Assembly: GCF_048403405.1 (NCBI RefSeq)
Contig: NZ_CP183131.1
Reading direction: 5' to 3' (one strand)
Length of the DNA: 64,000 nucleotides
Source of the DNA: Escherichia coli
Lineage (GTDB): Bacteria > Pseudomonadota > Gammaproteobacteria > Enterobacterales > Enterobacteriaceae
Positions 19,878 to 44,970 of the stretch are shown one piece after another. The translations under genes and the position numbers were made by a program. Within the stretch, counting starts at the first letter, position 1. The number at the start of each line of letters is the position of its first letter. The notes beneath the pieces were generated by a model. That model searched no databases and was not told the origin of the DNA. It saw nothing but the letters and a program-made list of their open reading frames with translations.

Positions 19878-19906
19878 ATCATAAGTTCATTTTATGATGC
19901 TGTAAA
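19878..19906 (-). promoter_or_regulatory. Putative sigma70 promoter TTTACA-N17-TATGAT upstream of the AAA+ ATPase operon
   Basis: Minus strand: -35 at 19901-19906, -10 at 19878-19883, 43 bp before the start codon. Confidence 0.45.
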
Positions 19907-19908
19907 TA

Positions 19909-20841
19909 TCACCTTCCAACTCTGTAGCTGTTCACGGCGGACTCAACGCGCTTGACTGACACGTCTATACCATTTGTCACCAGCAACTCATGCACTTGGC
20001 AACAGGCCTGTTGTTTCAGGCCAAAGAACTCTTCGTTAACACGGGCATACTCTGCTGCCGAATTGGAGGCGGCTCGTCTTAGATCTGGCATCAGAGATTC
20101 AACGCGAGACTCTACTTTGTCCAGAGAGGAACTGGCAGACGACAAGCTGAACAGCGAGAAGACGCTCCCAAAGTCGAAACCATCATTCAAACCGGCAAAG
20201 TCCATACCCAGATCGATAAACTCAGTTGCCATTGAGTGGTGCAGTGAGCCCACAATGTCACGATGATCCCCCAGCGCATTTGCGAAGGCTTTCACAGCTC
20301 TCTTCGCATCGTCTATTTCACTGCTGGCCGAGGAGTTTGACATCGACGACATGACGGAAATGCCCTTGTTGTCAGTCACAAGGTCGAGAACCTCCATTGT
20401 TTGTGCTGATGAAACACTGGAAGAGGCCTCACTGATTTCACGTAAGGCTTTTTGCCCCATGTCCACCAGTCGCTTGTTGCTCTCGTGGAGTCGAGATGCG
20501 GCGTCAAGCCTATCTTGAGCTTGGGTGATTCGTTCCAGAATCTGGCTACCGTCAATCGCTTGCTTCACGGCCCGAGAAACCAATCCCTCTTTGAGCTGGT
20601 CTCTCCCACGGCGCAAATACCGCAAATCGCTGTTATGGCCTTTTAGTGCTGAACGTATAACGGCGATGTCTCGACGAAACTGCCAGAACGTTATAATTTT
20701 TTGCCAGATCCCCAACTGAGCACGCTGTTGGCAAAGAGCTTCGTACTCTGCACCTTTCTCTTCAACCTGGCTGAGAGCTGCGGTAATCCTGTCTTGATAT
20801 TGCCGGTCGTCAGCCAAGTAACTTTGAATTGCTTGTTCCAT
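19909..20841 (-). CDS. Hypothetical protein (Ser-rich middle region)
   Basis: ORF; ATG at 20841 preferred over the TTG at 20853. Confidence 0.45.
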   Translation of the reverse strand: MEQAIQSYLADDRQYQDRITAALSQVEEKGAEYEALCQQRAQLGIWQKIITFWQFRRDIAVIRSALKGHNSDLRYLRRGRDQLKEGLVSRAVKQAIDGSQILERITQAQDRLDAASRLHESNKRLVDMGQKALREISEASSSVSSAQTMEVLDLVTDNKGISVMSSMSNSSASSEIDDAKRAVKAFANALGDHRDIVGSLHHSMATEFIDLGMDFAGLNDGFDFGSVFSLFSLSSASSSLDKVESRVESLMPDLRRAASNSAAEYARVNEEFFGLKQQACCQVHELLVTNGIDVSVKRVESAVNSYRVGR

Positions 20842-20854
20842 CCCGTACCCCAAA

Positions 20855-20874
20855 AACTTTCACATGTGAAAGTT
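20855..20874. promoter_or_regulatory. Palindromic operator-like site AACTTTCACATGTGAAAGTT (copy 1 of 8)
   Basis: Perfect 20-bp palindrome directly upstream of the 19909-20841 gene. Confidence 0.5.
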
Positions 20875-21035
20875 CATTCTTTCTTTGTTCTGCCAGTACA
20901 AAGTATTTTGCCTTAGAACGACCTCACACCCCGCCCCTGCTCACGCCCATTTTGGGCAATTACAGATTCAGCATTTACAGGCTTATAATGTGATGCCGTA
21001 ATAGACAAATAAAAAACGGCATAGCCGTTTTTACC

Positions 21036-21299
21036 TTACTTTGCTTTGCTCCGGCCCCCGCATAGTGCATTACCAATGCGTGATGAAAAATCCTTCCATT
21101 CTGGACTGTTCCGGTAGTCATCCTGTCCAGTTGCTTGTTCCTGGCTGGTCGATGCGAATTGATTGAGAGCATCCGGGCACGAAGAGCAGACCCCGATACC
21201 TTCCACTCTATTCACGCGAAGCCAGTGACACGGTTGACCGTTTTCAACACAAGCGTGATCATCGGTGCATCCGCACCCTATACATTTAGCAGTGAGCAT
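21036..21299 (-). CDS. Cys-rich small protein, possible zinc-binding
   Basis: 87 aa with CxGCGC…HxC…C…CSSC. Confidence 0.4.
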   Translation of the reverse strand: MLTAKCIGCGCTDDHACVENGQPCHWLRVNRVEGIGVCSSCPDALNQFASTSQEQATGQDDYRNSPEWKDFSSRIGNALCGGRSKAK

Positions 21300-21326
21300 A
21301 AGCGCCTCCCCAAGTAAATTAACAAC

Positions 21327-21355
21327 ATCATAGTATCATTATGTGATGCTGTAAA
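21327..21355 (-). promoter_or_regulatory. Putative sigma70 promoter TTTACA-N17-TATGAT
   Basis: Same architecture and near-identical spacer as the 19878-19906 promoter; 28 bp upstream of the 21299 start. Confidence 0.45.
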
Positions 21356-21402
21356 TATTAAAAAGAAAGCGGCCATAGCCGCCCTTCCGAAGTAATTTTC
21401 CT

Positions 21403-21900
21403 TTAGTGGTTGTCTTGGCCCTGTTTCCAAGCGACGAATGCCTGCACTAGCGGTACGCCATCATCACTCAAGGCATTCCCTTCTATCCATCCGCCTCGTA
21501 TGACGACAGACTGCCCTGATTCCAAGCCAAAAGGTTCCCACTCAGAAGCCACCGGGGAACCGTCCACCAGCAGGTCGAGATCTTCAATCCATTTATCCCG
21601 GCCATCCAGAGTTTTCCAAACTGAGTCATCGACCCAAAAGGCCTTGATTTGTTCTGGTGTGGCATTGGTCCAATCGTTGTCTTTCCCGTCAGCAAGTGAA
21701 AGTACAGAGTCAACCGTTTGCTGCCAGTTCGGCCAATCTTCTTCGACAACAACGCAAGTAAGCGAGCTCTTGCCATTTGCTCTGCGGCCATCATCAACCT
21801 TCCGGATCAGCCTTTCCAGTGTCGCCAGCTCCTCATCGCAGAGCACGGCCTGTGCATCGCTTATCTTTGCCACGAAGTAACGTGCTTCAAGCATCGACAT
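21403..21900 (-). CDS. Hypothetical protein
   Basis: 165-aa ORF. Confidence 0.45.
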   Translation of the reverse strand: MSMLEARYFVAKISDAQAVLCDEELATLERLIRKVDDGRRANGKSSLTCVVVEEDWPNWQQTVDSVLSLADGKDNDWTNATPEQIKAFWVDDSVWKTLDGRDKWIEDLDLLVDGSPVASEWEPFGLESGQSVVIRGGWIEGNALSDDGVPLVQAFVAWKQGQDNH

Positions 21901-21902
21901 AA

Positions 21903-22391
21903 TTATTTTCCTCCCCAGGGCACAAGTTTTGTCGAATATCCAAGCATTAGTGGGTGCTTCGGGTCCCCCGAACCAGTCACGCCAAATGCCAATACCGGCT
22001 TCCCAGATGCAACGAGCTGCTCTAAAAGCCTGTCCAAATGAACATGCAAAGACTTAGGCAGCTTAGTTCGGCTCCCCCAGCAGGGCACCAAGACATCAGC
22101 ATCCCGAATAATCCTTTCCAAGTGGATTTCATTTTCAGGCCCGACAGGATCAACCGCCGTAGCCAGCTCTCGAACGTCGGTCGCCCGAAAAGCAAAAGCA
22201 TTACCGACTATGAATCGCCTCCCTCCGTTGACCTTGGTAAACCCTATCCACTTTCTGACCGTGTGATCGTCCTCGGTGGCCGTGGCCGTAGAGCCGTTTA
22301 CACCAAAATAACCGAACACAAGGCCTTCGGGTTGCACATCCCTTTCCAGACGGTATCTGTACATGCCGCACTTGCTGATAATTGCACTCAA
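21903..22391 (-). CDS. Hypothetical protein, possibly DUF1643-like
   Basis: 162-aa ORF; weak resemblance recalled from memory. Confidence 0.4.
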   Translation of the reverse strand: MSAIISKCGMYRYRLERDVQPEGLVFGYFGVNGSTATATEDDHTVRKWIGFTKVNGGRRFIVGNAFAFRATDVRELATAVDPVGPENEIHLERIIRDADVLVPCWGSRTKLPKSLHVHLDRLLEQLVASGKPVLAFGVTGSGDPKHPLMLGYSTKLVPWGGK

Positions 22392-22481
22392 AGTGTCACC
22401 TCTTTTTGAATGAAAAATGCCCTTTCACAGTTGCATTTTTTAATGCTGTGATAGGATAAAAGTGTAAGTTGAAAAGGAGAG

Positions 22482-22823
22482 ATGACCATGAAACATGTAC
22501 TGAATATCGCGCTGATGGCTGTTGTTATTCTTGGCCTGGCTATGCTTGAGGCCACCAACTGGGGTTACGCAGTGCTGGCTATCCCGGCAGTGATTTGGGC
22601 CAAGTCGGTGCTCAACCTTCTGCACAAACTGCCGGTTCTGGCTGCTGCTTTTTGGATTCTGGTTGCTGTTTTCGCGTGGCAAGCGGCACTTGTTGGTATC
22701 CTGTTCTATGGCGTACTTGCGACCCCTAAAGCGCCAGCAAACACCAATGGCAAGAAAAGCCGAAAAGCCAATCTGATGGGCACTTACAGCTACGACTTTA
22801 AAACCGGCGAATGCTTTAGCTAA
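22482..22823 (+). CDS. Small membrane protein (paralog of 44971-45333)
   Basis: Three hydrophobic helices; N-terminus MKHVLNIALMAVVILGLAM… versus MKHVVNILLLGMVLLGIAM… in the paralog. Confidence 0.55.
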   Translation: MTMKHVLNIALMAVVILGLAMLEATNWGYAVLAIPAVIWAKSVLNLLHKLPVLAAAFWILVAVFAWQAALVGILFYGVLATPKAPANTNGKKSRKANLMGTYSYDFKTGECFS

Positions 22824-22837
22824 GACTGGCTCCACGG

Positions 22838-23317
22838 TTATTTCTCCTCAGCCTTCCTGATGGGCGCTCTCAGCGCTCTCAGGACAGCTTCTTCAAGAGC
22901 TGCGGCCCCTGCCCTATCACGTCGCTTTGTTAATGCCCCATATTGCTTCCTGATGGGTAGCATCAGCTCTTCGAGTTCATTGCGCTTCCTATCGTCGGCT
23001 TCAAGTTTCTCGCTTCGCGCCAAGGCTTCGGCTTGCTCGCTTTTTGCTTGCCACTCTATCTTGTCGCCTTGCACTTCCCATGCTTTAACGTAATGAGCAT
23101 CATCCAGACCTTTTGCTCCGTTGTCCGAAAACGAGGCCCCTGAGTAAATGCCACCGACAACCCAGCGCCTTTTGCTTTTTCCCTTTGAGAAATACATCTC
23201 ACGGCCTAAAACACCATCGCGCAAAGTGGCTACCGAGATAAATAGCCCAGCGTCCCCTTTCCTAAAGCCGCAGAACACAAACTCAAGCGGTTCGTATAAA
23301 TCACTCATGCTGATCAC
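22838..23317 (-). CDS. Hypothetical protein
   Basis: 159-aa ORF. Confidence 0.4.
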   Translation of the reverse strand: MISMSDLYEPLEFVFCGFRKGDAGLFISVATLRDGVLGREMYFSKGKSKRRWVVGGIYSGASFSDNGAKGLDDAHYVKAWEVQGDKIEWQAKSEQAEALARSEKLEADDRKRNELEELMLPIRKQYGALTKRRDRAGAAALEEAVLRALRAPIRKAEEK

Positions 23318-23711
23318 TCCGAAGAACAGACAAGACCTTCTCAGCTCGCTCCTGGAGGTCTATGAGTTCGGCAGCATCATTACCGCTCAATGACATGTCC
23401 CCGCCATAGAGGCGATACTCAACGCTGTCCATCGCCTGGCGAAGCAATCCTAGAAGAGCATTCACGTTTGCCGGTGTTGATAGGGCGACGGCTTCACCTT
23501 TCAGCTCACGTCCATTAAATTCCGACCACTCGGCTATGCCTGTCAGTTCGCAACAATTTGAGCAGGACATACTGGCAACATTCTGGGGATCGTCTGGACA
23601 GTGTTCATTGATGACAAAGTTCATCTCGTCACTGCCGCACTTTCCACAAATGATGTGTACTTTTTTGCCCATGCTGCTGCCCTTAGTGGAGAGTCTGCTC
23701 TTCCACAACAA
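23301..23711 (-). CDS. Hypothetical Cys-rich protein
   Basis: 136-aa ORF with CGKCGS…CSNCC. Confidence 0.4.
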   Translation of the reverse strand: MLWKSRLSTKGSSMGKKVHIICGKCGSDEMNFVINEHCPDDPQNVASMSCSNCCELTGIAEWSEFNGRELKGEAVALSTPANVNALLGLLRQAMDSVEYRLYGGDMSLSGNDAAELIDLQERAEKVLSVLRSDQHE

Positions 23712-23877
23712 TCATCCCGTCAACCAAGCTGATTGTGGCGGGACCGCAGTTACCCAGCACCTCAGCTTTGACTCCGTTGTTCAACGCGACATAAAGCCGT
23801 CTCGCCCCGTTGGTGACGCGGATGCCTTTCTGGTCGAGTTGTTCAAGCATTTCTTCGTAGGTAATTTTTTCGTCCAT
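23683..23877 (-). CDS. Hypothetical small protein
   Basis: 64-aa ORF. Confidence 0.3.
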   Translation of the reverse strand: MDEKITYEEMLEQLDQKGIRVTNGARRLYVALNNGVKAEVLGNCGPATISLVDGMIVVEEQTLH

Positions 23878-24128
23878 CAGTTCTCCTCAGCAAGGATCTC
23901 GTCGATGAGGTTCTTTGCTATCAATCTGGCATCCAAAGGGACAGCCAGGCTGTCAATTCTGCCTCTTTCATGGGCAACAATGAGTTGCGCCTTCCAAGCT
24001 ATCCCGGAAAGAGAAGCATCAGGTTCTTTACCTGAGCTTCTCATACATCTTGCGTTTCGGTACGCCGCCAGCCACTCAGGTCTGGTTGAGTTATAACGCC
24101 CAAGGCCAGCTTTTCGTTGGAAGCACAT
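23877..24128 (-). CDS. Hypothetical small protein
   Basis: 83-aa ORF; palindromic site and promoter-like motif upstream. Confidence 0.3.
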   Translation of the reverse strand: MCFQRKAGLGRYNSTRPEWLAAYRNARCMRSSGKEPDASLSGIAWKAQLIVAHERGRIDSLAVPLDARLIAKNLIDEILAEEN

Positions 24129-24140
24129 TCATCGCGCACC

Positions 24141-24169
24141 TTTACAGATTCATTTTATGATACTGTAAA
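24141..24169 (-). promoter_or_regulatory. Promoter-like palindromic element TTTACAG-N15-CTGTAAA
   Basis: Shares the catcattttatgat spacer with the other recurrent promoters. Confidence 0.35.
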
Positions 24170-24191
24170 CAATAAAAAGACACCTTGCAAG

Positions 24192-24210
24192 ACTTTCACA
24201 TGTGAAAGTT
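24192..24210. promoter_or_regulatory. Palindromic operator-like site ACTTTCACATGTGAAAGTT (copy 2 of 8)
   Basis: Between 24218-24766 and 23877-24128. Confidence 0.5.
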
Positions 24211-24217
24211 TTCTGGT

Positions 24218-24766
24218 TTACATCTGCTCGCTTGGATCAAACCCCAAAGCCTTGCACACGTCATCCAGGTCATCGAGCGTGAAGAATCCCAGCGTCAGTT
24301 CCCCGGAGCGCTTCGCGGGGTTATAGCGAACTTTGATAGGCCTACCCGTAGCATCGCTCATCAGGGTCTCCAGGCGCTTAATGTCTGCATCCCTGTCCAC
24401 TTCTTTGCCCTTCGCTATCGCCTCAAATTTATGAACCGGTGTCCTGGTATGCAGGAGATCCCTCAGGAGCTTTTCTCTCTTGCTGAAAGGTAACTTAGCC
24501 ACGGCCCTCACATGCCCCAGGGTGATCTTGCGTGGATTTCTGAGCCAGAGTGTTAGCTCTTCCTCCGATAGCGTACCGGCGCGTTTCAGGTGTGTAACCG
24601 TATAGACCTTCTCAATACCCAGATCCTCTCTGATCTGACTGTTTGAACGCCCCTCTCCGCTTAGGAACGCGACCACATAGGCCTTTTCTGCATCAGTCAT
24701 GCCTGGATGCTGGTGGTAGTAGTCAATGGCTTCTCTTGCATCGAGCAGTAGGGGTAGGTTGTTCAT
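24218..24766 (-). CDS. Putative HTH DNA-binding protein, weakly ParB/KorB-like
   Basis: 182 aa; segment …ITLGHVRAVAKLP… resembles the ParB GHARAL region; low certainty. Confidence 0.4.
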   Translation of the reverse strand: MNNLPLLLDAREAIDYYHQHPGMTDAEKAYVVAFLSGEGRSNSQIREDLGIEKVYTVTHLKRAGTLSEEELTLWLRNPRKITLGHVRAVAKLPFSKREKLLRDLLHTRTPVHKFEAIAKGKEVDRDADIKRLETLMSDATGRPIKVRYNPAKRSGELTLGFFTLDDLDDVCKALGFDPSEQM

Positions 24767-24928
24767 TCAGGACACCTTTTAGTCACATGACTATATCGAG
24801 GCTTATTCTACCCCCTATTTTAGTCACATGACTACTTACTGACATTTCGGCCCCCATCGCCGCCGATTTTTCTTGATTATAGGTTTGAATCTATATAGGA
24901 TTGCACCTATATTAAGTAAGGAGAAATC

Positions 24929-25279
24929 ATGTGGGTCATCGAGACAACCGACACCTTTGATGAGTGGTTCGATGCTCTGGATGATACCGATAGAGCAAAC
25001 GTGCTGGCTTCGATGATGGTGCTGCGAGATAGAGGCCCCATGCTGTCGAGGCCATACGCGGATACTGTTAACGGTTCATCCTACAGCAACATGAAAGAGC
25101 TTCGGGTCCAAAGCAAAGGAGATCCTATCAGAGCGTTCTTTGCGTTCGATCCAAAGCGTAAGGGGATTCTTCTCTGCGCCGGTAACAAGACCGGGGACGA
25201 GAAAAGGTTTTATGAAGTAATGATCCCAATTGCAGACCGTGAGTTTGCGGCGCACTTGGATAAATTGAAGAAGGAGTGA
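24929..25279 (+). CDS. higB: Type II toxin, RelE/HigB-like
   Basis: 116 aa; followed 4 bp later by an XRE-HTH antitoxin gene (toxin-first order typical of HigBA). Confidence 0.65.
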   Translation: MWVIETTDTFDEWFDALDDTDRANVLASMMVLRDRGPMLSRPYADTVNGSSYSNMKELRVQSKGDPIRAFFAFDPKRKGILLCAGNKTGDEKRFYEVMIPIADREFAAHLDKLKKE

Positions 25280-25283
25280 CGTT

Positions 25284-25586
25284 ATGGCAAGAACTCTTGA
25301 CCAAATGCTGGCAACAGAAAAGCCTGAGGTTGTTGCCAAAGCACAGAAAGCGGCCACTGAGATGTTACTGAACATCCACTTGGCAGAGCTTCGTGATCGC
25401 ATGAACCTTACCCAGGGGGAAATTGCTGCATCTCTGGGTGTGAGACAGCCGACAGTCTCCGAGATGGAAAAACCTGGACGAGATCTCAAGCTGTCGTCCA
25501 TTAAGCGGTACGTTGAGGCCTCCGGTGGCAAGCTACGCCTCGATGTTGAACTTCCGGACGGCACCCACTACGGCTTTGCCGTTTAA
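25284..25586 (+). CDS. higA: Type II antitoxin, XRE-family HTH (HigA-like)
   Basis: 100 aa; HTH LTQGEIAASLGVRQPTVSEMEK. Confidence 0.65.
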   Translation: MARTLDQMLATEKPEVVAKAQKAATEMLLNIHLAELRDRMNLTQGEIAASLGVRQPTVSEMEKPGRDLKLSSIKRYVEASGGKLRLDVELPDGTHYGFAV

Positions 25587-25612
25587 CTCGATACGCCCCG
25601 TTATGGGGCGTA

Positions 25613-25906
25613 TTACTTCTCTTGCTCTTCTTCCAGCCGTTTTCGGTATATCTCTCCTGCACGTTCCCTGCCATCGTCGGTCAGCCTAAAGGCCAGCTTT
25701 AGAGAAGCATTCCGGTACTTGTTCAACAGGCCGTTCTCCACCAGCGTGTGGCATGACGTTCGGAAGTTCGTTCCATGAATACCGCTCTGGCGAGCTGAAT
25801 TGATCATCTCCAGTATTTTTACACCTGGTACAGGCTCGGCTTTTCCACCGGCCTCAATTGCGTATAGAATGAACAAAACGTCTTTTTGAGTTGACGACAA
25901 TCTCAT
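25613..25906 (-). CDS. Hypothetical protein
   Basis: 97-aa ORF. Confidence 0.35.
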   Translation of the reverse strand: MRLSSTQKDVLFILYAIEAGGKAEPVPGVKILEMINSARQSGIHGTNFRTSCHTLVENGLLNKYRNASLKLAFRLTDDGRERAGEIYRKRLEEEQEK

Positions 25907-25993
25907 CCCTTCCCCTTATTCATGTCTGATATGAATAAGGCTCCCACGAAGGAGCCTTATGTAAACCTTATTCATGTGTCACATGATTAAGAT

Positions 25994-26266
25994 CTAGTTC
26001 ACGGAGTCTTTCAACCCCTTACCAGCTTTGAACCCAGGAATGTTGGCCGCCGCGATCTGGATGTTCTCTCCAGTCTGGGGATTCCGCCCGGTTCGCGCTG
26101 CGCGTTCCTTAACGTGGAAAGTACCAAACCCAGTGAGCGCTACTGTCCCACCCGCTTTAAGCTCCTCTGTCACTGAGTTGATCAGCGCATTTACCGCAGC
26201 TTCGGCCTTTGCTTTGCTAATGTCAGCGTCTTCGGCCACTTTCATAATCAGTTCACTTTTGTTCAT
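25994..26266 (-). CDS. HU-family nucleoid-associated DNA-binding protein
   Basis: 90 aa, [67 protein letters not shown]…. Confidence 0.85.
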
Positions 26267-26323
26267 CGTTATTCCTGTTTGTTTTCTTGGTTACTGTTTA
26301 CACCTGCATACTCTGGGGTGTGG

Positions 26324-26920
26324 TTAGTGCTTTCTTCGCCACTCCCAAGGGGGAGTTCTCTCCGATTCCGGTAATGCCCAGAGACCTCGCTTATCGGCTT
26401 TGGCTTCGGCCTCCAGCTTGAACAGCTCCGGTGTTTTGGCGTACTGCCGGTACACCCACGCACTCCCAGAACGGACCATTTCGGCATTGACCCATTTGCC
26501 ATCGACATAAAGGTTGGCGACCAGACGGCCATAACGGTCTTTGTCGATTTGCTCGACTTTAATCATTCGACCAAACACCAGATCGGACAACGCCTGTTTC
26601 GCCTTTGAGCCGTAGGGTTGTTTCTTCTCTGGGGTGTCGATTTCCGCCAGCCTTACCCGGTACTGGATTTTGCCGCTCCGGCAATCTTTCCCGGAGTCAC
26701 AGCTTTGTTCAGTCAGGACCTTGACCGTATCACCGTCAGACACCCCCACAACCTTCGCAGTAAAGGTTTCTGCCCATACCTGAGGGGCCACCACCAGCAT
26801 GGCTACCAGGAACGCTGAAACCCCCGTATTTTTCACAAAACCTAACCTCATAATCACTCCATCCAAATTACTTTTTTTTCCCAGCCGGTAGAGCCTTGGC
26901 CCAACAGAGCCTTGTTTCAT
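26324..26920 (-). CDS. Secreted thermonuclease (staphylococcal-nuclease-like)
   Basis: Signal peptide then SNase-like core (VVGVSDGDTVKV…RLAEIDTPE…YGR…); true start probably the internal Met (MRLGFVKN…). Confidence 0.7.
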   Translation of the reverse strand: MKQGSVGPRLYRLGKKSNLDGVIMRLGFVKNTGVSAFLVAMLVVAPQVWAETFTAKVVGVSDGDTVKVLTEQSCDSGKDCRSGKIQYRVRLAEIDTPEKKQPYGSKAKQALSDLVFGRMIKVEQIDKDRYGRLVANLYVDGKWVNAEMVRSGSAWVYRQYAKTPELFKLEAEAKADKRGLWALPESERTPPWEWRRKH

Positions 26921-27081
26921 CCACCTTGCTGTCTACGATTCGACAGGCATCCCAGTTAAGAGATGACCAGTGAGCAATGGCAGAGGCCAACCAGTACCAC
27001 GGTGCCGTAAACACCGGCTGGCCCCCTTCCTTCGTTTTAAATACCTGGTATCGCATGTTGATCCTCCTGTTTGGGTGAGGC

Positions 27082-27984
27082 TTAGGCCTCGTAATAGAAA
27101 TTTTTTGTGTCCGGATAGGGTTTAAAGCAATGAGCCGTGGCTCTCCCCAGGGAAAGCACTGAAGCCTCAGCTTCCGGCGCTTCCTCAGTGTCTTCACGAA
27201 ATTCCCCGCCAAGTTGCTTCACCCATTCGGCAGCGAGCTGCACACCTTCATCAAAGGGAACTTTGTTCTTTTGAAGCACATCCAGATAGGAAAGCAGCAA
27301 GCAGTGAGGCGTAATGACGGCGGTGTTCCAATCGGTTGCGAGCCGTGTTTCGTCCATATCTGCATACCAGGCATCAACCTGATGTTTCAATCCGATCTCG
27401 GCCATCATGCCGTGCTTACCGGCGACCTTTCTGCCTTCCTCTACCACATCAACCGGGGCGTCCCAGTAGAGGACTCCCCCGTCCGCTTCTTGGGTCGCAC
27501 AGGTTGCACCTTGCGGCCAATGCCTCCGTTCCATAACGAGCTCGCAGAGCGTTTGGTTGCCTACAGGAGCCTTGTAGTCCTCATCGAGATTCACCACGAT
27601 GGTTTCCGGCTCCTGTTCAACCGGTGGCAGGTATCTGGCGACCAGAGGCATTGTCAAAATCACAGCCCCATCCATGTGAAAGGATGTTGGAGCCTTCACT
27701 ATTCGGTCCATTACCCAGCACCAAGCATGAAGCAACCGATCCTCTACCTTGTCGTCAGCCTCAATCTCTTGAACGAACTGGTTGAAACGAACCTGACTAT
27801 CCAGAAACAGGCCTGTGCTCTGACACTTATCGCTGATCGTATGAATGAGCTCCGCCTGCTCCAGAAGCATTTCTCGGGTGACTTCCTCCACATCACCAAA
27901 TGCGTCAAACAACTTTGTCATGTAGTCACGAATTTGCATGTTCTTCCCCCTCGGCATCGAATTGCTTTGCAAGCTCAGGATCAC
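27082..27984 (-). CDS. Hypothetical protein
   Basis: 300-aa ORF. Confidence 0.45.
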   Translation of the reverse strand: MILSLQSNSMPRGKNMQIRDYMTKLFDAFGDVEEVTREMLLEQAELIHTISDKCQSTGLFLDSQVRFNQFVQEIEADDKVEDRLLHAWCWVMDRIVKAPTSFHMDGAVILTMPLVARYLPPVEQEPETIVVNLDEDYKAPVGNQTLCELVMERRHWPQGATCATQEADGGVLYWDAPVDVVEEGRKVAGKHGMMAEIGLKHQVDAWYADMDETRLATDWNTAVITPHCLLLSYLDVLQKNKVPFDEGVQLAAEWVKQLGGEFREDTEEAPEAEASVLSLGRATAHCFKPYPDTKNFYYEA

Positions 27985-28156
27985 CGGCCCAGCGAAGGGC
28001 GTCTCCCATATGCGTGAAAGCGCGTTTATTGTTATCCTGCTTATTCACCCTGACCGGCGTCTTTTGGTCACGAGGCTGTAGTAGCCAGTACCCGGCCTCT
28101 TCCCTGATTAGTTCTGCGGCCACCAGAAAGCCGTTCTTCGTTGCAATGATCATCAT
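27926..28156 (-). CDS. Hypothetical small protein
   Basis: 76-aa ORF. Confidence 0.3.
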   Translation of the reverse strand: MMIIATKNGFLVAAELIREEAGYWLLQPRDQKTPVRVNKQDNNKRAFTHMGDALRWAGDPELAKQFDAEGEEHANS

Positions 28157-28701
28157 CAGCTCCCGTGGTTAAGCCAGTAGGCATAGATAGTGATGGCAAG
28201 GCCTCCCGCGAGCACAATGACTGCGGCGGTACGCTGGACCCACTTCGATGCACCAAACCGCGCCAGGTGTCTCCCCAGGAACTGGAAAGGTGCTGTCTTT
28301 CCGATAGCGCGAATCACCCAGGAGATTGCCAACAGAAGGATGGCTGTGGCCGGGTATATACCAACCCCTAAGAGATTCATCTCTCCGACCGCGAGCTGAT
28401 AGATGAATGCCAACAGCATGGCTACCGCAGTCAATACAGCTACAACCTTGGTCCCGTTTCGCCAGTCCCACGCTCGACGTGCGTCACTGGTAAAACTCAC
28501 CATCGAGACAAGGAACGGCATAAATGGCAGGTTCATGCTGGTGGGTTTATCCATGAATGCGTCAAGACCCACAAACATGGCCGTCATCACCACATAGAAC
28601 AACAGGGCGGGGACAAGCATGTCGCGTAAAGACCGAACCTGGTTGGCGTTCGCGTTTTGAGTATTCGTCGTCATTGTGTTTGCCCCTTCAACATTCCCCA
28701 T
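28156..28701 (-). CDS. Integral membrane protein
   Basis: 181 aa with 4-5 hydrophobic helices. Confidence 0.5.
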
Positions 28702-29117
28702 AGCTGACGGTGAAGATCAGCGATTACCTTGTACGTCCCCTTCACTGCTGGTTGCTCAAGGGTCTTGAGCATCCACAAAGCAATAAACAGGCTGGAAAGC
28801 AGTGCCACCACCAACTGGATGTTGTGGCTACTCAAATAGACGGCATAGCCGTTTAGGCAGGCACTCAATAGCAACCAGACCCTGGCCGTCATCAGCCCCC
28901 AGCGGTGATAGGTCACGAGCAGGTAGGCTGTTACGACAGAACAGAGTGTCATGGCACCAGAAGTGGCTAGGTAAACGACCCATGTACTGGCCTCGCCAGT
29001 GACGTAAGTGCCACCAACGGAGAAGGACAAGCCAAAGATCCAAATTGCTGCATTCCGGAGTAGGGCATCAACAATGATGTAACTAGCAGCGAGATTGATA
29101 ATTCCGCGTTTTAGCAT
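28671..29117 (-). CDS. Integral membrane protein
   Basis: 148 aa with 4 hydrophobic helices. Confidence 0.5.
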
Positions 29118-29476
29118 TACCCCCTCCCGTTATTCTGATACCTGCCCAGCTCAGCCCTGAGCCTATTAATTTCTTCCGTGGCTTCGGCCAACTGCTCCCG
29201 ATACTTCTTGAACTGCTGATATGAATGCCAGGACTGTCCTTTCGATACTGACTTCGTGATGGCGGCGACCTCATCCGGCGTCAACCGGGTGAGCTGCTCT
29301 TCCGGATAGATCAGGATGGTGTTGCTGTCCCAGTCAAAGCCTGCGTGAATAGCTTTCACCCCCACTGTAGGGGTTCCACCAATCCCACCTGGCTGGTGGA
29401 TGACAAGCCTCAAAGGCGCTGAGGCCTTGTGTGGATGAAGGCTATCGAGAGCCTCTTTTGCTTCTTGTAACTCCAT
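29117..29476 (-). CDS. Hypothetical protein
   Basis: 119-aa ORF; palindromic site 40 bp upstream. Confidence 0.4.
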
Positions 29477-29515
29477 AGATTCACCTCATAGTGAAATCAG
29501 GCCCCGGAGAGCCTG

Positions 29516-29534
29516 ACTTTCACATGTGAAAGTT
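29516..29534. promoter_or_regulatory. Palindromic operator-like site (copy 3 of 8)
   Basis: actttcacatgtgaaagtt. Confidence 0.5.
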
Positions 29535-29961
29535 AATTTGCCTTCTGCTGTCTGGCAGAAACCCTCAAGGCCAGCGCCTTTTGCATGTCGGGCTGCTGGA
29601 AACGCACCTTGGTCCGATCAGGCCAACTGTCCATTTCATTGCACCGCAGGGTGTCTATGGCCGCATCACGGTAAACCTGATAGAAGTCGGTTCCACCTAT
29701 GGAGTTAATTGCCATCATGGCGGCAAACATCGGGTTACTGTTCATGACGCTTGTAAGAGTCTCGGGGGTCATTGGGGTGTCGCATGACTTGTTGAGGGCA
29801 ACCAGCAGGTCATTACCAACCAGGGCACAGGCAGCGCATACCTGTTTGGTATCATCCAAGGCCTTCGCGTATTCGTTGTTTGGCTGAGGGACGCTTGAGC
29901 AAGCCGACAGGACAAGCAGCCCCGCCAGAAGGCATCCCAATTTAGTTGTAATCTTGATCAT
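29533..29961 (-). CDS. Putative lipoprotein
   Basis: Lipobox LLVLSAC at the end of the signal peptide. Confidence 0.55.
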   Translation of the reverse strand: MIKITTKLGCLLAGLLVLSACSSVPQPNNEYAKALDDTKQVCAACALVGNDLLVALNKSCDTPMTPETLTSVMNSNPMFAAMMAINSIGGTDFYQVYRDAAIDTLRCNEMDSWPDRTKVRFQQPDMQKALALRVSARQQKAN

Positions 29962-29974
29962 CAGTTCTCACTCC

Positions 29975-29994
29975 ACTTTCACATGTGAAAGTTT
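29975..29994. promoter_or_regulatory. Palindromic operator-like site (copy 4 of 8)
   Basis: actttcacatgtgaaagttt, 14 bp upstream of the lipoprotein start. Confidence 0.5.
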
Positions 29995-30855
29995 TTATTG
30001 GTTCGCGGAGTCGTCTTGTTGCGACTCAATCATCATTTTTCGCATCACGGCCATGATGGCTTGCGCCGGTTGAGCGCCGCCGAGAAGCTGGCTCTTGCCG
30101 GTATGGTTGTCCACTACAAAAGTGGCTGGTGTCCCGTTGACGCCATAGCTCTTGGCTTTCTGGATGTCAGCTTCAACCTTGTCTTCGTACTTTCCTGAGC
30201 CGAGGCACTCCCGGAACGCATCCAGATCAGCACCAACACCAGTGACAACAGAGGCCAGGTCAGCAACACCGCCACCATTCCCCTGGGTATGGTGGAAAAT
30301 GTCGTTAACGAAGACCCAGAAGCCACGGTTGCCCTTCTGCTCAGCAATACATTCAGCGGCCAGAGCTTCCTTGTGAGCTGCCGGGTTATGGAAATCGAGA
30401 GGCATGTGCTTCCACTGCCAATTCACATTGCCTTTGCTGGCATCCACAATTTGTTTGGGTGTGTCGTGGAATCGCTTGCAGAATGGGCACTCCATATCGG
30501 AGAACTCCACCAGCGTGAACCGAGCACCAAGGTCCCCGTAGATGTGTTTGCCTTCTTCGACCTTCTCAGGTGCTGCCTCGAACTGGGCATACTTCTGATC
30601 GATGTCGGCTTGTTGTTTCTGCGCGACAAACTTGTTGATGCTTTCGGCCACAGCAGCTTCAAACTCTGCCTTGCTTTTGAAGGTGACGCCTTCGGCATCC
30701 TTCACCTGGTTGACCGTAGACTTCACGTTGGCGATCTCTTGCGCCAGATCCTTCTCTTTCACGAACTGGTAGATCCCGAACCCGGTTCCTACGAGCCCCA
30801 AAAGAATGGCGGCAACAACCCCGAGACGTAGGGATTTGGTACTTTGTTCTGTCAT
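29995..30855 (-). CDS. Thioredoxin-fold thiol:disulfide oxidoreductase (DsbA/DsbC-like)
   Basis: N-terminal TM anchor then CPFC active-site motif. Confidence 0.75.
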   Translation of the reverse strand: MTEQSTKSLRLGVVAAILLGLVGTGFGIYQFVKEKDLAQEIANVKSTVNQVKDAEGVTFKSKAEFEAAVAESINKFVAQKQQADIDQKYAQFEAAPEKVEEGKHIYGDLGARFTLVEFSDMECPFCKRFHDTPKQIVDASKGNVNWQWKHMPLDFHNPAAHKEALAAECIAEQKGNRGFWVFVNDIFHHTQGNGGGVADLASVVTGVGADLDAFRECLGSGKYEDKVEADIQKAKSYGVNGTPATFVVDNHTGKSQLLGGAQPAQAIMAVMRKMMIESQQDDSANQ

Positions 30856-30870
30856 ATCAAACTGCTCCTA

Positions 30871-31848
30871 TCAGTAAACTTTCACAGCGCTGAGTTCTTG
30901 CACGAAGGAACTGGCTTCGAGCTTCGCTCGTTGGGTCAGTCGCCGGATGATGTCTTCGGTTGGTGTGTAGTCCACCAAGTTGCTCTGGTGGATGACGTCT
31001 CGCGCCACGGAGTTCAAACTACCCAGGCCATCAATCAGCCCAATGTCTTTGGCCTGCTCCCCGTTCCAGAGCAATCCAGAAAACACCTCTGGGTCGTCTT
31101 TCAGTCGATCACCCCGCCCAGCCTTCACTCGTTCGATGAACTGCTGGTGGGTTTTCGATAGAACGCCCTCCCAGAATTTCTTCATGTCAGAGGTAAGAGG
31201 GGAGAATGGGTCGAGAAGCGCTTTGTGCTCTCCGGAAGTGATAGCCCGGCGCTCGATGCCGAGCTTGTCCATCAAGCCGGTGAATCCAAACCCCGAGCTG
31301 ATGACGCCGATAGAACCGACAAGGCTGGCGCGGTCAGCATAGATTTCATCCGCAGCAGAGGCGATGTAGTAACCGCCAGAGGCACCGATGTCATCAATGA
31401 TGGCGTAGACCTTTTTCTCCGGATGAAGGGCTCGCTGCGCCTTCACTTCGTCATAAATCCGTCCTGCTTGAACCGGGCTACCGCCAGGGCTGTTTATGCG
31501 AAGCACGATAGCTTGTGAGTTCGGGTTGTCGAATGCAGCTTGGATGGACGGGATAAGGTGATCAGCATCGGCCAGAGTGCCAGCAGCAATTTCACCACGG
31601 ATGTTGATATACGCGGTGTGAGGGGCTCCTGCCTTGGCGCTTTGCCACGGCATCCCACCCGGATTAGATGCCAAAATGATGAAGCCGATCATGAGAAGCA
31701 CGAAACCAGATGCGCGAAGCACACGCAACATGGTCCGCCAGCGCCGGTCTTTCACCTGCTCTTTATGCAGGGTGAACATGTACTTCTCAATGAGTTCTTT
31801 CTCCCAGGGGATCTCTTTGTTTTCTGCCATTAGTTTTTCCTTTTGCAT
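30871..31848 (-). CDS. sppA: Signal peptide peptidase SppA-like (S49 family)
   Basis: 325 aa; TM anchor; conserved S49 region …IGASGGYYIA…. Confidence 0.75.
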   Translation of the reverse strand: MQKEKLMAENKEIPWEKELIEKYMFTLHKEQVKDRRWRTMLRVLRASGFVLLMIGFIILASNPGGMPWQSAKAGAPHTAYINIRGEIAAGTLADADHLIPSIQAAFDNPNSQAIVLRINSPGGSPVQAGRIYDEVKAQRALHPEKKVYAIIDDIGASGGYYIASAADEIYADRASLVGSIGVISSGFGFTGLMDKLGIERRAITSGEHKALLDPFSPLTSDMKKFWEGVLSKTHQQFIERVKAGRGDRLKDDPEVFSGLLWNGEQAKDIGLIDGLGSLNSVARDVIHQSNLVDYTPTEDIIRRLTQRAKLEASSFVQELSAVKVY

Positions 31849-32747
31849 GTTTCGATTATCAGTCCCCAGAACTCTTCATCAGCGCTATCAGCCCGGTCTT
31901 TGACTTTCTGGTAAACAAGGTTGGTGTTGAGCTGATGCTCACGACAGAACTGAGCAATGTTGCTGTAGGTCCTGTCCAGATAGGTGAAGGGTTTCCCTTT
32001 ACCTTTTTTCTTGGCGAGGATGAGCTTCCACTCATCATTGGAGAGTTTGTCTGCGGCCTTCCCGGTGTCCGCAATGCGCCTACGCACCGTTACCGGATCA
32101 AGTCCATGTGCTCTGGCTATGCTGGCAACGCAGTTGAACTTCCGACCGTCAATCATGACAGTAGGCAAATCACCAGCGGCAGCCTCCTTGAATCGGAAAC
32201 CTCTGTAACCTGGTTTGAAGATCCCAGGAGCAAGTTGCTCACGGAACTCGATTGCTTGTTCTGACCTGACAAACTTGCTGTCGATTTTGCCGAGCATGTA
32301 CTTAGCCCGAGCGATTACCTGGTAAAGCGTCTTCTCCAGGAGCATGGCGTCAGCAGCTCGACTCGGAAGACCTATGTCGTCTTCTTGCTCGATACCCAAC
32401 ATTTCTGCATGGCTGGAGCCTTCTGCATGTCGGAAACAGCCGTCGTACTCAAAAAGAAAGGAGGCCAAACCTCCTCTCAGCTTTGCTTTGAACCGGGTGT
32501 TGGCCGCGTTCTCTGGCGCTGGTGCCAGCTCGGACACTTCAAGCCCTAAATTTGCGGCCAACTTCCGCAGGTCTTCCTCTCCAATTCGGCATCCAGGCTG
32601 CATAACCTGCGCCAGAGCAGATTCATCAGCACATCCGCGTTCTTTCAGCTCAGCCAAGAGGTAGGGAACTCGTACTACCCCCATAAGCTCAAGCTCCCTG
32701 AATCGCGTGGACCACCAGCTCACAGAGTTTCCCGTACACAGGAGCAA
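31830..32747 (-). CDS. Hypothetical protein with possible C-terminal DNA-binding repeats
   Basis: 305-aa ORF; assignment weak. Confidence 0.4.
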   Translation of the reverse strand: MLLCTGNSVSWWSTRFRELELMGVVRVPYLLAELKERGCADESALAQVMQPGCRIGEEDLRKLAANLGLEVSELAPAPENAANTRFKAKLRGGLASFLFEYDGCFRHAEGSSHAEMLGIEQEDDIGLPSRAADAMLLEKTLYQVIARAKYMLGKIDSKFVRSEQAIEFREQLAPGIFKPGYRGFRFKEAAAGDLPTVMIDGRKFNCVASIARAHGLDPVTVRRRIADTGKAADKLSNDEWKLILAKKKGKGKPFTYLDRTYSNIAQFCREHQLNTNLVYQKVKDRADSADEEFWGLIIETCKRKN

Positions 32748-33072
32748 GGCAGAGTGAAGCCATCACCATGCCAAAGGCTTTCGATGGAGCCTCTTTGGCG
32801 AACTTGGTCAACCACGGCATCATGCCGCACAGAGCAGCAACCATAGCGCCAGCCACCCCCAGGGAAGGGAATGCCATCACTTGGGCCAGAATGAAGAAAC
32901 ACTGGGCGTATGCCGCATGGGTCATCGCCTTCTTATCTGCTGCCGTGAACTCCACGGCATCTACGCTTTTGACTTTTTCCATCACATTGTCCTCATGCAA
33001 CATCAGGTTTTCCGAAAAATTTCTCATACACTTCGAGGTCGAAGGCCAGCATGGTCTTTGCCGCCTTTTCAC
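32689..33072 (-). CDS. Hypothetical membrane protein
   Basis: 127-aa ORF, hydrophobic. Confidence 0.35.
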   Translation of the reverse strand: MKRRQRPCWPSTSKCMRNFSENLMLHEDNVMEKVKSVDAVEFTAADKKAMTHAAYAQCFFILAQVMAFPSLGVAGAMVAALCGMMPWLTKFAKEAPSKAFGMVMASLCLAPVYGKLCELVVHAIQGA

Positions 33073-33466
33073 TAAGCTGGTGGAGGCTAAGCATCTGAAC
33101 CTTGTCAGTGCCGGTCACTTGCAGATCCACCGCGAACCACGTCCCACCTTTGGTCACGGCCAGAACTTGCACCGCCCAGGGCTTATCCAGTCGTTCGGGC
33201 GGAGTGATCATGTTCGACACTTTGGCGACCGTCGCGGTTGAACCTACCCAGTGCTTGTCGAACGCAATGACGTTCAACGCTTCAAACGCATCCTTCGCAG
33301 CTTTAAACCGGCTCCGGACAGCATCTTGTTGCTTCCAAGCCATGAACTGGAGAAGGGTCATTCCACCAGCCATAAGGGTGAGAAAACTCAAGCCATTGGC
33401 GGCAGCTACGACCGTCGCTACCAAGGACCCCAACATGACGAAGCGGTTATGTTTAAGCTGGGCCAC
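32993..33466 (-). CDS. Hypothetical membrane protein
   Basis: 157-aa ORF with N-terminal hydrophobic helices. Confidence 0.4.
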   Translation of the reverse strand: MAQLKHNRFVMLGSLVATVVAAANGLSFLTLMAGGMTLLQFMAWKQQDAVRSRFKAAKDAFEALNVIAFDKHWVGSTATVAKVSNMITPPERLDKPWAVQVLAVTKGGTWFAVDLQVTGTDKVQMLSLHQLSEKAAKTMLAFDLEVYEKFFGKPDVA

Positions 33467-33557
33467 TATTCACCTCCTATACCAACCAGCGTACAGGACT
33501 TTTCAAAAATGCAACCCCGCCTAGCTGCCCAATTCGGGCAACCCTGATTCAATCCAG

Positions 33558-33574
33558 AACTTTCACATGTGAAA
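33558..33574. promoter_or_regulatory. Palindromic operator-like site (copy 5 of 8, one arm degenerate)
   Basis: aactttcacatgtgaaa then ctttcc. Confidence 0.45.
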
Positions 33575-34084
33575 CTTTCCGCCACAGGAACAGGAGGTTT
33601 TTACCTGACCAGAACGGATGGATTGATAGCGGTGCCACAGCTTGACCACTTCTTTTTCGCTGAGAAGGTTTGTCTTGATGTAACGGACTCTATCCCCGTC
33701 CGCTGTCTCAACAACGGTTCGGACATAGCCGTACTTGGCAACGGGTGCCTTGTACTTGTGTGACAGAATTACCCGGTAAACCGAGAGCTGGATAATGTCC
33801 GACTCATAGATGTGGTTTACCTGGCGCAGCTTGGTGTCCAAGGGAATGAGAACCCCATTCTTGGTTTGGTACACCTGATCAACCCTGCCGTGCATGGGCA
33901 CCGGCTGTGTGGTTGATATGTCCTGTTCGGACAAAAACAGAGTGGCCGAGCGCAGCTCATAAGGCATGTTCTCTGATTTCCACCACGCCCAGGTGTCTCC
34001 AATGCCGCGTTTGCGCCATTGGTCCACTTTCGCAATGACGAAAGGGGCGATGATCAGGACGAATATCCAGAGAACTGGCTTCAT
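33563..34084 (-). CDS. Hypothetical protein with N-terminal TM anchor
   Basis: 173-aa ORF. Confidence 0.4.
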   Translation of the reverse strand: MKPVLWIFVLIIAPFVIAKVDQWRKRGIGDTWAWWKSENMPYELRSATLFLSEQDISTTQPVPMHGRVDQVYQTKNGVLIPLDTKLRQVNHIYESDIIQLSVYRVILSHKYKAPVAKYGYVRTVVETADGDRVRYIKTNLLSEKEVVKLWHRYQSIRSGQVKTSCSCGGKFHM

Positions 34085-34086
34085 GA

Positions 34087-34608
34087 CTACCTCCGGCCCC
34101 TAAACCACTCTGGATGATTGGATACATCCATGCTCTTAACCTGTGATGAGAAGACCAGTAGCTCTTGGGTCGTCAGGACGGTCTCAGGAGCCCGAGCGAT
34201 GAAAGGTCTCAGCAATTCAGAACCCGCATAGATATTGATGACCATATGCAATCGCTCTGTTGCTCCAGAAACTCTCCGCCAGCTCCGGTAGGTTTCTGTT
34301 GATTTGGCATAGCCAACCAAGGCAGGAGCCAGCGTGTCGGACTCCTTCGTATTCAACTTCCCTTTTGCTGCCTTCGATACGAACTCAGCGATCACCGAAG
34401 CCAGCATGTCGGAGGTAAGGTGAAGCGGCAGCTTTATCGTGTCGAAGTCAGCCTGCTTGATGGTGAACAGGCGGATGTGATCGTTGCGGTAGTCACGCAC
34501 ATAGATGACATGACTCTCAAATGGGTTGGAGTGGTTAAAGGCATCCATACCCCAGCCTGCGGCCTCAAGATGTGCGTTTGATACTGACTTGTCGTAATCA
34601 AATTCCAC
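34087..34608 (-). CDS. Hypothetical protein
   Basis: 173-aa ORF. Confidence 0.4.
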   Translation of the reverse strand: MEFDYDKSVSNAHLEAAGWGMDAFNHSNPFESHVIYVRDYRNDHIRLFTIKQADFDTIKLPLHLTSDMLASVIAEFVSKAAKGKLNTKESDTLAPALVGYAKSTETYRSWRRVSGATERLHMVINIYAGSELLRPFIARAPETVLTTQELLVFSSQVKSMDVSNHPEWFRGRR

Positions 34609-34612
34609 GCTA

Positions 34613-35221
34613 TTACTCTCCGTCTTGTCGTTCAGGAACTTTCACATGTGAAAGTTTTCCGTCGGTCATGATGTCCAGGACGGCTTTGCCCAGTCTCATC
34701 CCTTTATGGTTTTGAACCGGGTCTCCCTTGTAGAAAAGTCCTGGCTCGTTATCGGGATGGAATACCCCGTGAGGAATGTTGTCGTGATCGCCCAGCCACA
34801 TGCGTAGCCTCAGATCCACCAGCCACCCATCATCCAGGACAACCCAGAAATGCGGTGTCACGATGTCCTTGGTCTGTTCGTTTCGCACAAAGCCATACAT
34901 GCAGTCATGAGGTACACCCGCTTCATTGAGTAGGTGGCTTACTGCCCATGTCATACCGTCACATTCCATCTGGCAGTCATCCAAGGTCATAAGGACGGCT
35001 TCCAGTTCCCGGTGCCACTCCGTCATTTGCTTGGCCGCAGGTTTTACCACCAGCTCGTTTTTGTTTTCTGCCAAGATGATGTCTTCCTCGTCAATATTGC
35101 ATTCGTCTATCGCTTCCGAACGGATGGATACCGCTTCATCCCAGTCATCGCTCGATCCGAAAATGCTCCAACCCTCAAGACCGTAATTCACCCATACGAT
35201 GAACCGCTTTATCGTTTTCAT
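34613..35221 (-). CDS. Hypothetical protein
   Basis: 202-aa ORF. Confidence 0.4.
   Translation of the reverse strand: MKTIKRFIVWVNYGLEGWSIFGSSDDWDEAVSIRSEAIDECNIDEEDIILAENKNELVVKPAAKQMTEWHRELEAVLMTLDDCQMECDGMTWAVSHLLNEAGVPHDCMYGFVRNEQTKDIVTPHFWVVLDDGWLVDLRLRMWLGDHDNIPHGVFHPDNEPGLFYKGDPVQNHKGMRLGKAVLDIMTDGKLSHVKVPERQDGE
34637..34656. promoter_or_regulatory. Palindromic operator-like site (copy 6 of 8)
   Basis: aactttcacatgtgaaagtt, 29 bp upstream of the 34608 start. Confidence 0.5.
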
Positions 35222-35416
35222 GTGCGGCCCCCTTTAACCGTGCAACGTTCCCACATACTCACCCCTTCAAACCGTAACCCCACCAAAAAGCCACTTCTTG
35301 ATGATTTCCAATCAGCAGCGGCAGGTTGCCCCTGAACTAACCTCACCGAAAAACCACCTTTAGATTGCTTTCTGGTGCTTATCAAGTTCTCCTGAGTGAT
35401 TAGTCGTTCTGAAAAC

Positions 35417-35444
35417 TTTACTTTTCACAGTATCATTTTATAAT
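35417..35444 (+). promoter_or_regulatory. Putative sigma70 promoter TTTACT-N16-TATAAT upstream of the PAPS-reductase-like gene
   Basis: Contains the recurrent tatcattttataatactgtaaat motif. Confidence 0.4.
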
Positions 35445-35489
35445 ACTGTAAATCATAAAAACAACCCAGTAAAGAAAAAAGAGCGACTT

Positions 35490-43449: not shown

Positions 43450-43983
43450 TCACAAATCACGAAGGTTGCGATAGATAGCCAAGACTCGGCTACCATAGTT
43501 TCTGGCTCGGATTTCGTCTTCCCAGGCGTGATAGCGGCCAACGCCAAGCTCCAAGTCATTTGGAGATGACTGAATGGCTTCTGATAGCACCTCTGCCCCA
43601 ACCATGACGTTGGTCTCTGGGTCGAGAAGATCTGCTGGAGAAGAAACTCTATGACCATTCCACCGGATGCTCACTTGCATAAACCCGACATCAATGGCAC
43701 GACCGTACTGCTGCTGAAACTCAGCGAGCTTAGCCTTTGCCTGATCTTCCGACTTAGCATAGAAAGGAAGCCCAGGAACGCGAAGCGTCCAAGGCCAAGG
43801 ACTTATAGAGCCATTACCTCTCCCTGATGCAGATTCGGCCAATGCGACCGAATACACTAGAAGAGGGTCGAGGTTATATGCTTTCGCTGCTTTGTCGAAG
43901 ATGGTTCCGCTCAGGTCAATAGCATTCGCTGTTGATGAAAGGAGAGCCGCAGACAGAACTAGCGCCTTGGCTTTGTTCTTCAT
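43450..43983 (-). CDS. Lytic transglycosylase (SLT domain) with signal peptide
   Basis: 177 aa; conserved ES and AYN region of family 1 lytic transglycosylases. Confidence 0.7.
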   Translation of the reverse strand: MKNKAKALVLSAALLSSTANAIDLSGTIFDKAAKAYNLDPLLVYSVALAESASGRGNGSISPWPWTLRVPGLPFYAKSEDQAKAKLAEFQQQYGRAIDVGFMQVSIRWNGHRVSSPADLLDPETNVMVGAEVLSEAIQSSPNDLELGVGRYHAWEDEIRARNYGSRVLAIYRNLRDL

Positions 43984-44846: not shown

Positions 44847-44970
44847 TGAGGGCAAATTCTAATCGAAGAAGTTGCCAATGGAATGGTTGTTTAGCAAAAA
44901 ATAGTCAAACTTTCACAGTTGCATTTTTTGATGCCGTGGTAAACTGGAGGTAAAGAGTAAGGGGGTTGAT

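Follow-up and report, generated by a model that had tools for sequence, protein, structure and literature searches.

A 29-bp dyad repeated over core promoters of the IncC plasmid backbone, with Acr1 as its tentative repressor

Several transcription units on a 64,000-nucleotide stretch of Escherichia coli DNA (contig NZ_CP183131.1; the whole stretch is called the window below) are preceded by promoters that seem to share not only their hexamers but also the sequence between them, and the question raised by this locus is which factor such a conserved spacer serves. An earlier note on the sequence had described four near-identical -35/spacer/-10 elements, together with a related motif in front of two paralogous membrane-protein genes, and had taken the spacer for the site of a shared activator or repressor. 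The shared sequence was found to be a 29-bp dyad repeated across core promoters of an IncC plasmid backbone. It is tentatively proposed from the sequence, with somewhat less than even confidence, that this element would be the operator of one plasmid-encoded repressor, Acr1.

The window is backbone of an IncC (IncA/C2) plasmid. Its part between 19 and 25 kb was 100% identical to many IncC conjugative plasmids, repA was placed at 38094..39194(-) from an annotated IncC copy, and the acr1-slt-acaD-acaC operon, eexC and traG were placed at 42.3-49 kb; the region of the element is the stretch of backbone from repA to a resistance island. The model plasmid pVCR94deltaX is without the segment that holds copies S1-S3 and S5 (Table 1), and this may be a reason why the element was overlooked there.

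The 20-mer TCATTTTATGATRCTGTAAA, with up to three mismatches allowed, was matched in the window at 19887, 21336, 24150 and 35433, always on the + strand, against 0.02 expected matches, and none of 100 shuffled sequences reached four. A position weight matrix (PWM) trained on six window sites returned two extra, weaker copies, S7 and S8, the latter in the acr1 promoter Pacr1. The skeleton ACAGN3CATN3ATGN3CTGT, scored over 14 positions with a threshold of at least 12, gave seven matches in the window compared to 0.23 in shuffles, and every match was an intergenic site of this family. By the annotated genes, all eight window copies were intergenic. Outside the window, pattern searches locus by locus located three further copies on the complete IncC plasmid pT212. 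Two of these flank AcaCD boxes and parS in the vcrx035/036 divergent region, and one (TTGCAGTATCATTTTATGATCGCTACAAT) occupies the spacer of the partition promoter PparA, with parS directly after it.

The element was described as the dyad TTTACAG-yATCAT-TTT-ATGATr-CTGTAAA, composed of outer half-sites TTTACAG/CTGTAAA, inner half-sites yATCAT/ATGATr and a run of T at the centre. Alignment of eleven IncC copies (the eight of the window and the three from outside it) gave the consensus ttTcAcAg-ta-TCAT-ttT-aTGAT-g-CTGTAAaa, in which a mean of 8.0 of the 15 arm positions were self-complementary, compared to 4.4 +/- 0.5 in shuffled copies (maximum 6.1, n=5000). In every copy the stronger half, read on the sense strand of the gene that lies downstream, carried a -35-like hexamer (TTTACA, TTGACA or TTGCAG) and, after it, G and yATCAT. 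The weaker half was a mirror image of the stronger one in S3 and S4, and was partly exchanged for a good -10 hexamer elsewhere, namely TATGAT in S1, S2 and one 035/036 copy, and TACAAT in PparA. It was also observed that the central T-run lay on one plasmid strand in 10 of the 11 copies, PparA being the exception, which probably reflects a common direction of the genes.

Further, the relation of the element to promoters was examined. A promoter scan called TTTACA-17-TATGAT at 19906..19878(-) and 21355..21327(-), both with 10 of 12 matches and the top two in 4.7 kb. The third promoter described earlier, at 24141-24169 (S3), reads TGTAAA at its presumed -10 and was left uncalled by the strict sigma-70 scan, as were S5, S6 and Pacr1. 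A promoter does exist at the fourth site, TTTACT-16-TATAAT at 35417-35444(+) with 10 of 12 matches, but in another register: the element itself is S4, and its centre TATAAT serves as the -10. For S5 and S6, the -35 is probably TTGCAT, the inner half-site. The positions given earlier for the four sites and the two related ones were all confirmed, and the motif near the paralogous membrane-protein genes belongs to the same family (ACAG-N15-CYGT around a central CAT-T-run-ATG), whereas the family had been undercounted and two registers had been mixed. At least three registers are represented among the sigma-70-like promoters under the element, which argues for an operator rather than a special class of promoter. 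Terminator-like hairpins stand directly upstream of S2 and of S7, which fits copies that mark the starts of transcription units. A spacer operator of the MerR type, with a spacer of 19-20 bp, was not found, the spacers of the promoters under the element being 16-17 bp; what recurs in the 11 IncC copies is a dyad across the core promoters of at least eleven backbone operons.

The conservation of the element was followed in six lineages, IncC, IncA, a Photorhabdus contig, a compost contig, pAhD4-1 and pVPS62. The IncA plasmid pRA1 held five strict matches with substitutions within them, and pAhD4-1, the Acr1 of which is 64% identical, held five in 48 kb against 0.01 expected; pVPS62 also carried copies. 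The pAhD4-1 copy in front of a PAPS-reductase-family gene had a 25-nt core identical to that of IncC S4, when the flanks could not be aligned. Across the six lineages, conservation at those promoters was limited to the PeexC block and to the -35-proximal half of the Pacr1 copy. Pacr1 carried the element in all lineages examined, as a half-operator in IncC-like plasmids and as a full dyad in pVPS62. Within IncC, the 32-bp blocks at S5 and S6 were identical at 29 of 32 positions with unalignable flanks, upstream of paralogues that are 36% identical. The element is thus conserved past its flanks in diverged relatives, and the earlier view of the conserved spacer as the site of a shared regulator is upheld by the dyad symmetry, by the several registers and by this retention.

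A family of strong sigma-70 promoters that arose by duplication, conversion or convergence, with no dedicated regulator and with a palindrome due only to the complementarity of TTTACA and TGTAAA, was considered improbable. It would suit the sense-orientation -35-like hexamer that the best-conserved half always includes, the drift of the outer right half to better -10 hexamers in relatives, and the 10/12 consensus promoters of S1 and S2. However, sigma-70 needs neither the conserved G after the -35, nor the C before TGTAAA, nor the inner ATCAT/ATGAT, and such an origin agrees poorly with the variable registers (the centre as the -10 in S4(+), the inner half as the -35 in S5/S6), with the 25-nt core shared by IncC and pAhD4-1 within unalignable flanks, and with near-consensus copies that are transcriptionally silent in the plasmid. 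As to the last point, published whole-plasmid RNA sequencing (RNA-seq) of pVCR94 recorded vcrx034/035 and vcrx008-011 as essentially silent under every condition; the former genes sit downstream of a TTTACA-17-TATGAT copy and the latter beside S4.

An element that spans the -35 to the -10, taken together with silent near-consensus promoters, fits a repressor better than an activator, and of the two options in the earlier note the repressor is favoured. The least probable explanation considered was activation of weak promoters, TTTACA-17-TGTAAA for example, by a plasmid factor that sits over the spacer. The poor -10 hexamers of S3, S4(-) and Pacr1 speak for it, and Pacr1 needs AcaB (PMC8373056), but the spacers lack the MerR-type length, the element spans the contact surface of the polymerase, AcaCD signal is absent at the sites, and PparA is repressed, not activated, by the plasmid.

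The test with an FlhDC-like activator that the earlier note had suggested found no support. The element cannot be taken for an AcaCD box: no peak stands at S4, PparA, PeexC or Pacr1 in the published list for AcaCD from chromatin immunoprecipitation with exonuclease digestion (ChIP-exo), the peaks of the 035/036 region belong to separate AcaCD boxes there, and in published data the expression of eexC, acr1 and parAB053 is AcaCD-independent. The boxes of the FlhDC-like AcaCD are likewise a repeated promoter element on the IncA/C backbone, but they lie upstream of the -35 at 18 activator-dependent promoters. Nor is the element parS. The exact parS core TTTCACATGTGAAA was found eight times in the window (20858, 24194, 29518, 29977, 33561, 34640, 44830 and 51558), always at coordinates other than those of the copies. 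Both are multi-copy, intergenic and palindromic on one plasmid, but the core and the length of parS differ from those of the element, and ParB binding is proven for parS. An Frpo-like single-strand hairpin promoter was dropped as well, the element being only 29 bp.

A site for a host factor common to Gammaproteobacteria (CytR-, Fur- or Fis-like), by which plasmid maintenance would be tied to host physiology, was judged highly improbable. These plasmids have Vibrio, Aeromonas and enterobacteria as hosts, and S5/S6 contain GTTGCATT, which resembles the CytR octamer; this was the sole likeness to a host consensus. The LexA box (CTGT-N8-ACAG) was rejected as the copies read ACAG-N15-CTGT and the CTGT-N8-ACAG matches of the window lie elsewhere. 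Compared to the consensus sequences, the half-sites were reversed or the spacing was wrong for TyrR (TGTAAA-N6-TTTACA), CRP, CytR, Fur, ArgR and IHF. A search of 5426 E. coli genomes found the 35-nt consensus in IncC DNA only (135 of the genomes; 510 of its 522 places were plasmid-borne). No chromosomal regulon of E. coli shared the element in this search, and the repression of PparA needs the plasmid.

Among the proteins of the plasmid, Acr1 is favoured as the binder. The protein matched HTH_35 (E value 1.8e-15), Edwardsiella EnrR (7F9H, 2.9e-8) and Mu Ner (1NEQ, 1.5e-6). Acr1 alone shuts off a Pacr1 fusion, and the H-NS-like Acr2 represses Pacr1 too (PMC4207636); the site of EnrR is an AT-rich palindrome, occupied by a pair of closely packed monomers (PMC9023278). 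A 173-bp PparA fragment was reported to be repressed 8-11-fold by whole IncC plasmids and ~1.5-1.7-fold by a rep+parAB053 replicon, from which a further backbone repressor of PparA, encoded outside rep+parAB053 and counteracted by the SGI1 protein Sci, was deduced (PMC10954446). The element is not mentioned in that 2024 study; in the fragment, it was found to be the only conserved feature besides parS. The recognition helix of Acr1, SRQVVSTALY, was invariant wherever the ACAG/CTGT half-sites were kept. In pVPS62 the helix reads SRQVLSNTLY and several outer half-sites are ATAG/AAAG and CTAT, a single contrast in which the PeexC copy keeps CTGTG. Acr1 is preferred because it is a Ner-family protein that by itself represses Pacr1, a promoter in which the element is present in all lineages examined, and because of the palindrome binding of EnrR, the pattern of helix and half-sites and the plasmid-dependent repression of PparA. 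An Acr1 operator would also account for the additional PparA repressor deduced in 2024.

Several observations weigh against this assignment. The co-variation of helix and operator amounts to one contrast and is not followed at PeexC of pVPS62. The Pacr1 copy of IncC is the weakest in the family, with a PWM score of 16 compared to 44-47 for the six training sites. The known sites of Ner, D108 Ner and EnrR differ in sequence from the element. In pVPS62 and loci L012-L014 the changed outer bases also improve the -10 (TATAAA), and what was read as outer half-site may in part be no more than promoter hexamers. The additional PparA repressor could equally be Acr2.

Another plasmid protein at the same repressing operator is possible, though on balance unlikely: 053, a small backbone protein or a complex nucleated by Acr2, in which case the Acr1 site would be elsewhere in Pacr1. 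The third gene of the par operon encodes 053, an HTH_43 (winged helix-turn-helix) protein with no similarity to Acr1. The helix IPESTIKRQ of this protein does not vary among IncC, pAhD4-1 and pVPS62, and the promoter of 053 itself carries the element, which makes autoregulation plausible; yet the rep+parAB053 replicon, which supplies 053, gave the weak PparA repression cited above. Pacr1 is also repressed by Acr2 and contains other repeats (CTTTGT-N9-ACAAAG and GTGTCA/GTGACA), but H-NS-type proteins leave the conserved G/C positions and the register of the dyad unexplained. The 182-aa ParB_C regulator encoded at 24218..24766 was rejected as the binder, being absent from pRA1, which retains the sites. 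The small open reading frames (ORFs) just downstream of copies (87, 83 and 64 aa) showed no Pfam domain, and the 83-aa ORF was not conserved in pRA1.

For Acr1, the mode of action is inferred as follows. The putative repressor, bound across the -35, the spacer and the -10, would exclude RNA polymerase. Acr1 would repress its own master-switch promoter, that of acr1-acaDC, in an autogenous manner, and the predicted regulon would comprise Pacr1, parAB053, eexC and its paralogue, vcrx034/035, the divergent vcrx007 / vcrx008-011 and four operons of unknown function at 18.3-24.1 kb. ParB at an adjoining parS may act as a co-repressor with Acr1, in the way of KorA and KorB on IncP-1 plasmids. Three parS cores of the window are 25-115 bp away from a copy of the element, the closest being that at 24194-24207, 25 bp from S3, and five IncC regions hold both elements, including PparA and vcrx035/036 outside the window. 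The palindrome ACTTTCACATGTGAAAGT, seen next to S3 and also upstream of eexC, corresponds to the ParB site of PMC10954446. The broadest version of the proposal, in which Acr1 is a KorA-like global repressor that acts with the KorB-domain ParB at adjoining parS, silences an "establishment" regulon (partition, entry exclusion, vcrx034/035, vcrx006-011 and the four operons of unknown function) and is the PparA co-repressor neutralised by Sci, is distinctly unlikely to hold as a whole.

Two known systems resemble the proposed circuit. On the IncP-1 plasmids RK2/RP4, the short palindromic operators of KorA (OA) and KorB (OB) are repeated on many backbone core promoters, as is the element here, with a similar spread over replication and partition, transfer control and unknown genes and with the repressor gene within its own regulon. 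The ParB of IncC has a KorB domain, and copies of the element are often near its parS. The OA operator is a 12-bp palindrome of unrelated sequence, whereas the IncC element is a bipartite dyad of 29 bp, and its candidate repressor belongs to the Ner family, not that of KorA. The second system is the Ner family itself (Ner of Mu and D108, EnrR), which has the same helix-turn-helix fold family as Acr1 and, for EnrR, an AT-rich palindromic site too. The sites of Mu and D108 Ner are inverted repeats that total ~30 bp around an AT-rich centre, a scale close to that of the element. The EnrR half-site, AATAAATNATTTATT, contrasts with yATCAT-TTT-ATGATr flanked by ACAG/CTGT in IncC. A multi-operator plasmid regulon is proposed for the IncC element; Ner, in contrast, serves a single phage locus, and EnrR acts as a counter-silencer of H-NS.

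The regulation described for IncC/IncA plasmids involves AcaCD, AcaB, Acr1, Acr2 and ParB/parS, and a 2026 preprint gives acaB, acaDC, acr1 and acr2 as the only regulation genes. A full-text search with motif strings (six 12-mers) returned irrelevant matches only, although an earlier mention in subscription papers is possible, and no paper on an Acr1 operator or regulon was found in the searchable literature.

The copies in the window, together with acr1 and the parS beside S3, are collected in Table 1.

Table 1. Copies of the dyad element in the window and associated features
Feature	Position	Strand	Description
S1	19878..19906	-	Coincides with TTTACA-17-TATGAT; upstream of 487-aa AAA ATPase operon (18372..19835 -); predicted transcription start ~19871
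S2	21327..21355	-	Coincides with TTTACA-17-TATGAT; just downstream of terminator 21366-21385; predicted transcription start ~21320
S3	24141..24169	-	Best dyad, TTTACAGATTCATTTTATGATACTGTAAA; upstream of 64-aa/123-aa/156-aa operon (23877 to 22838, -); region has a pRA1 orthologue
S4	35424..35452		TTCACAGTATCATTTTATAATACTGTAAA; between vcrx009-like gene (34613..35221 -) and PAPS-reductase-family gene (35490..36605 +); predicted transcription start ~35451(+)
S5	22424..22452		TTCACAG TTGCAT TTTTT AATG CTGTGAT; 96-bp divergent region between DUF1643 gene (21903..22391 -) and gene of 113-aa EexC paralogue (22482..22823 +)
S6	44912..44940	+	PeexC, promoter of entry-exclusion gene eexC (44971..45333 +); parS 44830-44843 lies 68 bp upstream
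S7	20974..21002		Weaker copy, TTTACAGGCTTATAATGTGATGCCGTAAT; just after bidirectional terminator 21012-21032; upstream of AcaCD-like box, parS 20858-20871 and 310-aa gene 19909..20841(-)
S8	44360..44388	-	In Pacr1; sense strand TTGACAGCATCATTATTTGGGCTTGTAAA; -35-proximal half intact, other half degenerate
acr1	43983..44255	-	90-aa Ner-family HTH_35 repressor; leading gene of acr1-slt-acaD-acaC
parS beside S3	24190..24211		AAGACTTTCACATGTGAAAGTTTT; site of ParB (KorB-domain), possible co-operator

Some observations were made on the neighbourhood of single copies. Between S7 and the parS at 20858 lies an AcaCD-like box (CGCCCATTTTGGGCAA, 20945-20960). The same layout of three elements is present in IncA pRA1, which suggests a triply controlled promoter ahead of the 310-aa gene. 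An unannotated 87-aa Cys-rich ORF (21036..21299 -) forms a tiny transcription unit from S2 to the bidirectional terminator downstream, and its region is kept in pRA1. The 113-aa membrane protein next to S5 is a paralogue of EexC (36% identity, E value 7e-20) with the same operator block; its gene sits in the segment absent from pVCR94deltaX, and a second exclusion-like gene may have escaped study. The 182-aa protein (minus strand) beside parS and S3 contains the ParB dimerisation domain PF23552 and is the "parB-like regulator" R55_24 of the literature; pRA1 is devoid of both its gene and a HigBA-like toxin-antitoxin pair. Away from the copies, five tandem 9-bp units TTACGATAA at 54447-54496 stand directly upstream of the gene of a 346-aa "DNA-binding protein" (53382..54422 -). 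The array resembles an iteron or an operator for autoregulation; published RNA-seq shows constitutive expression of the vcrx139-like 346-aa gene.

IncC/IncA plasmids are important vehicles of resistance genes, including those for carbapenemases, and part of the backbone is silent for reasons not yet explained. If the proposal is true, one operator would tie transfer, maintenance and exclusion into a single circuit. [quoted passage not shown] In that case, by means of a single anti-repressor, Salmonella genomic island 1 (SGI1) would both destabilise its helper plasmid and switch on transfer.

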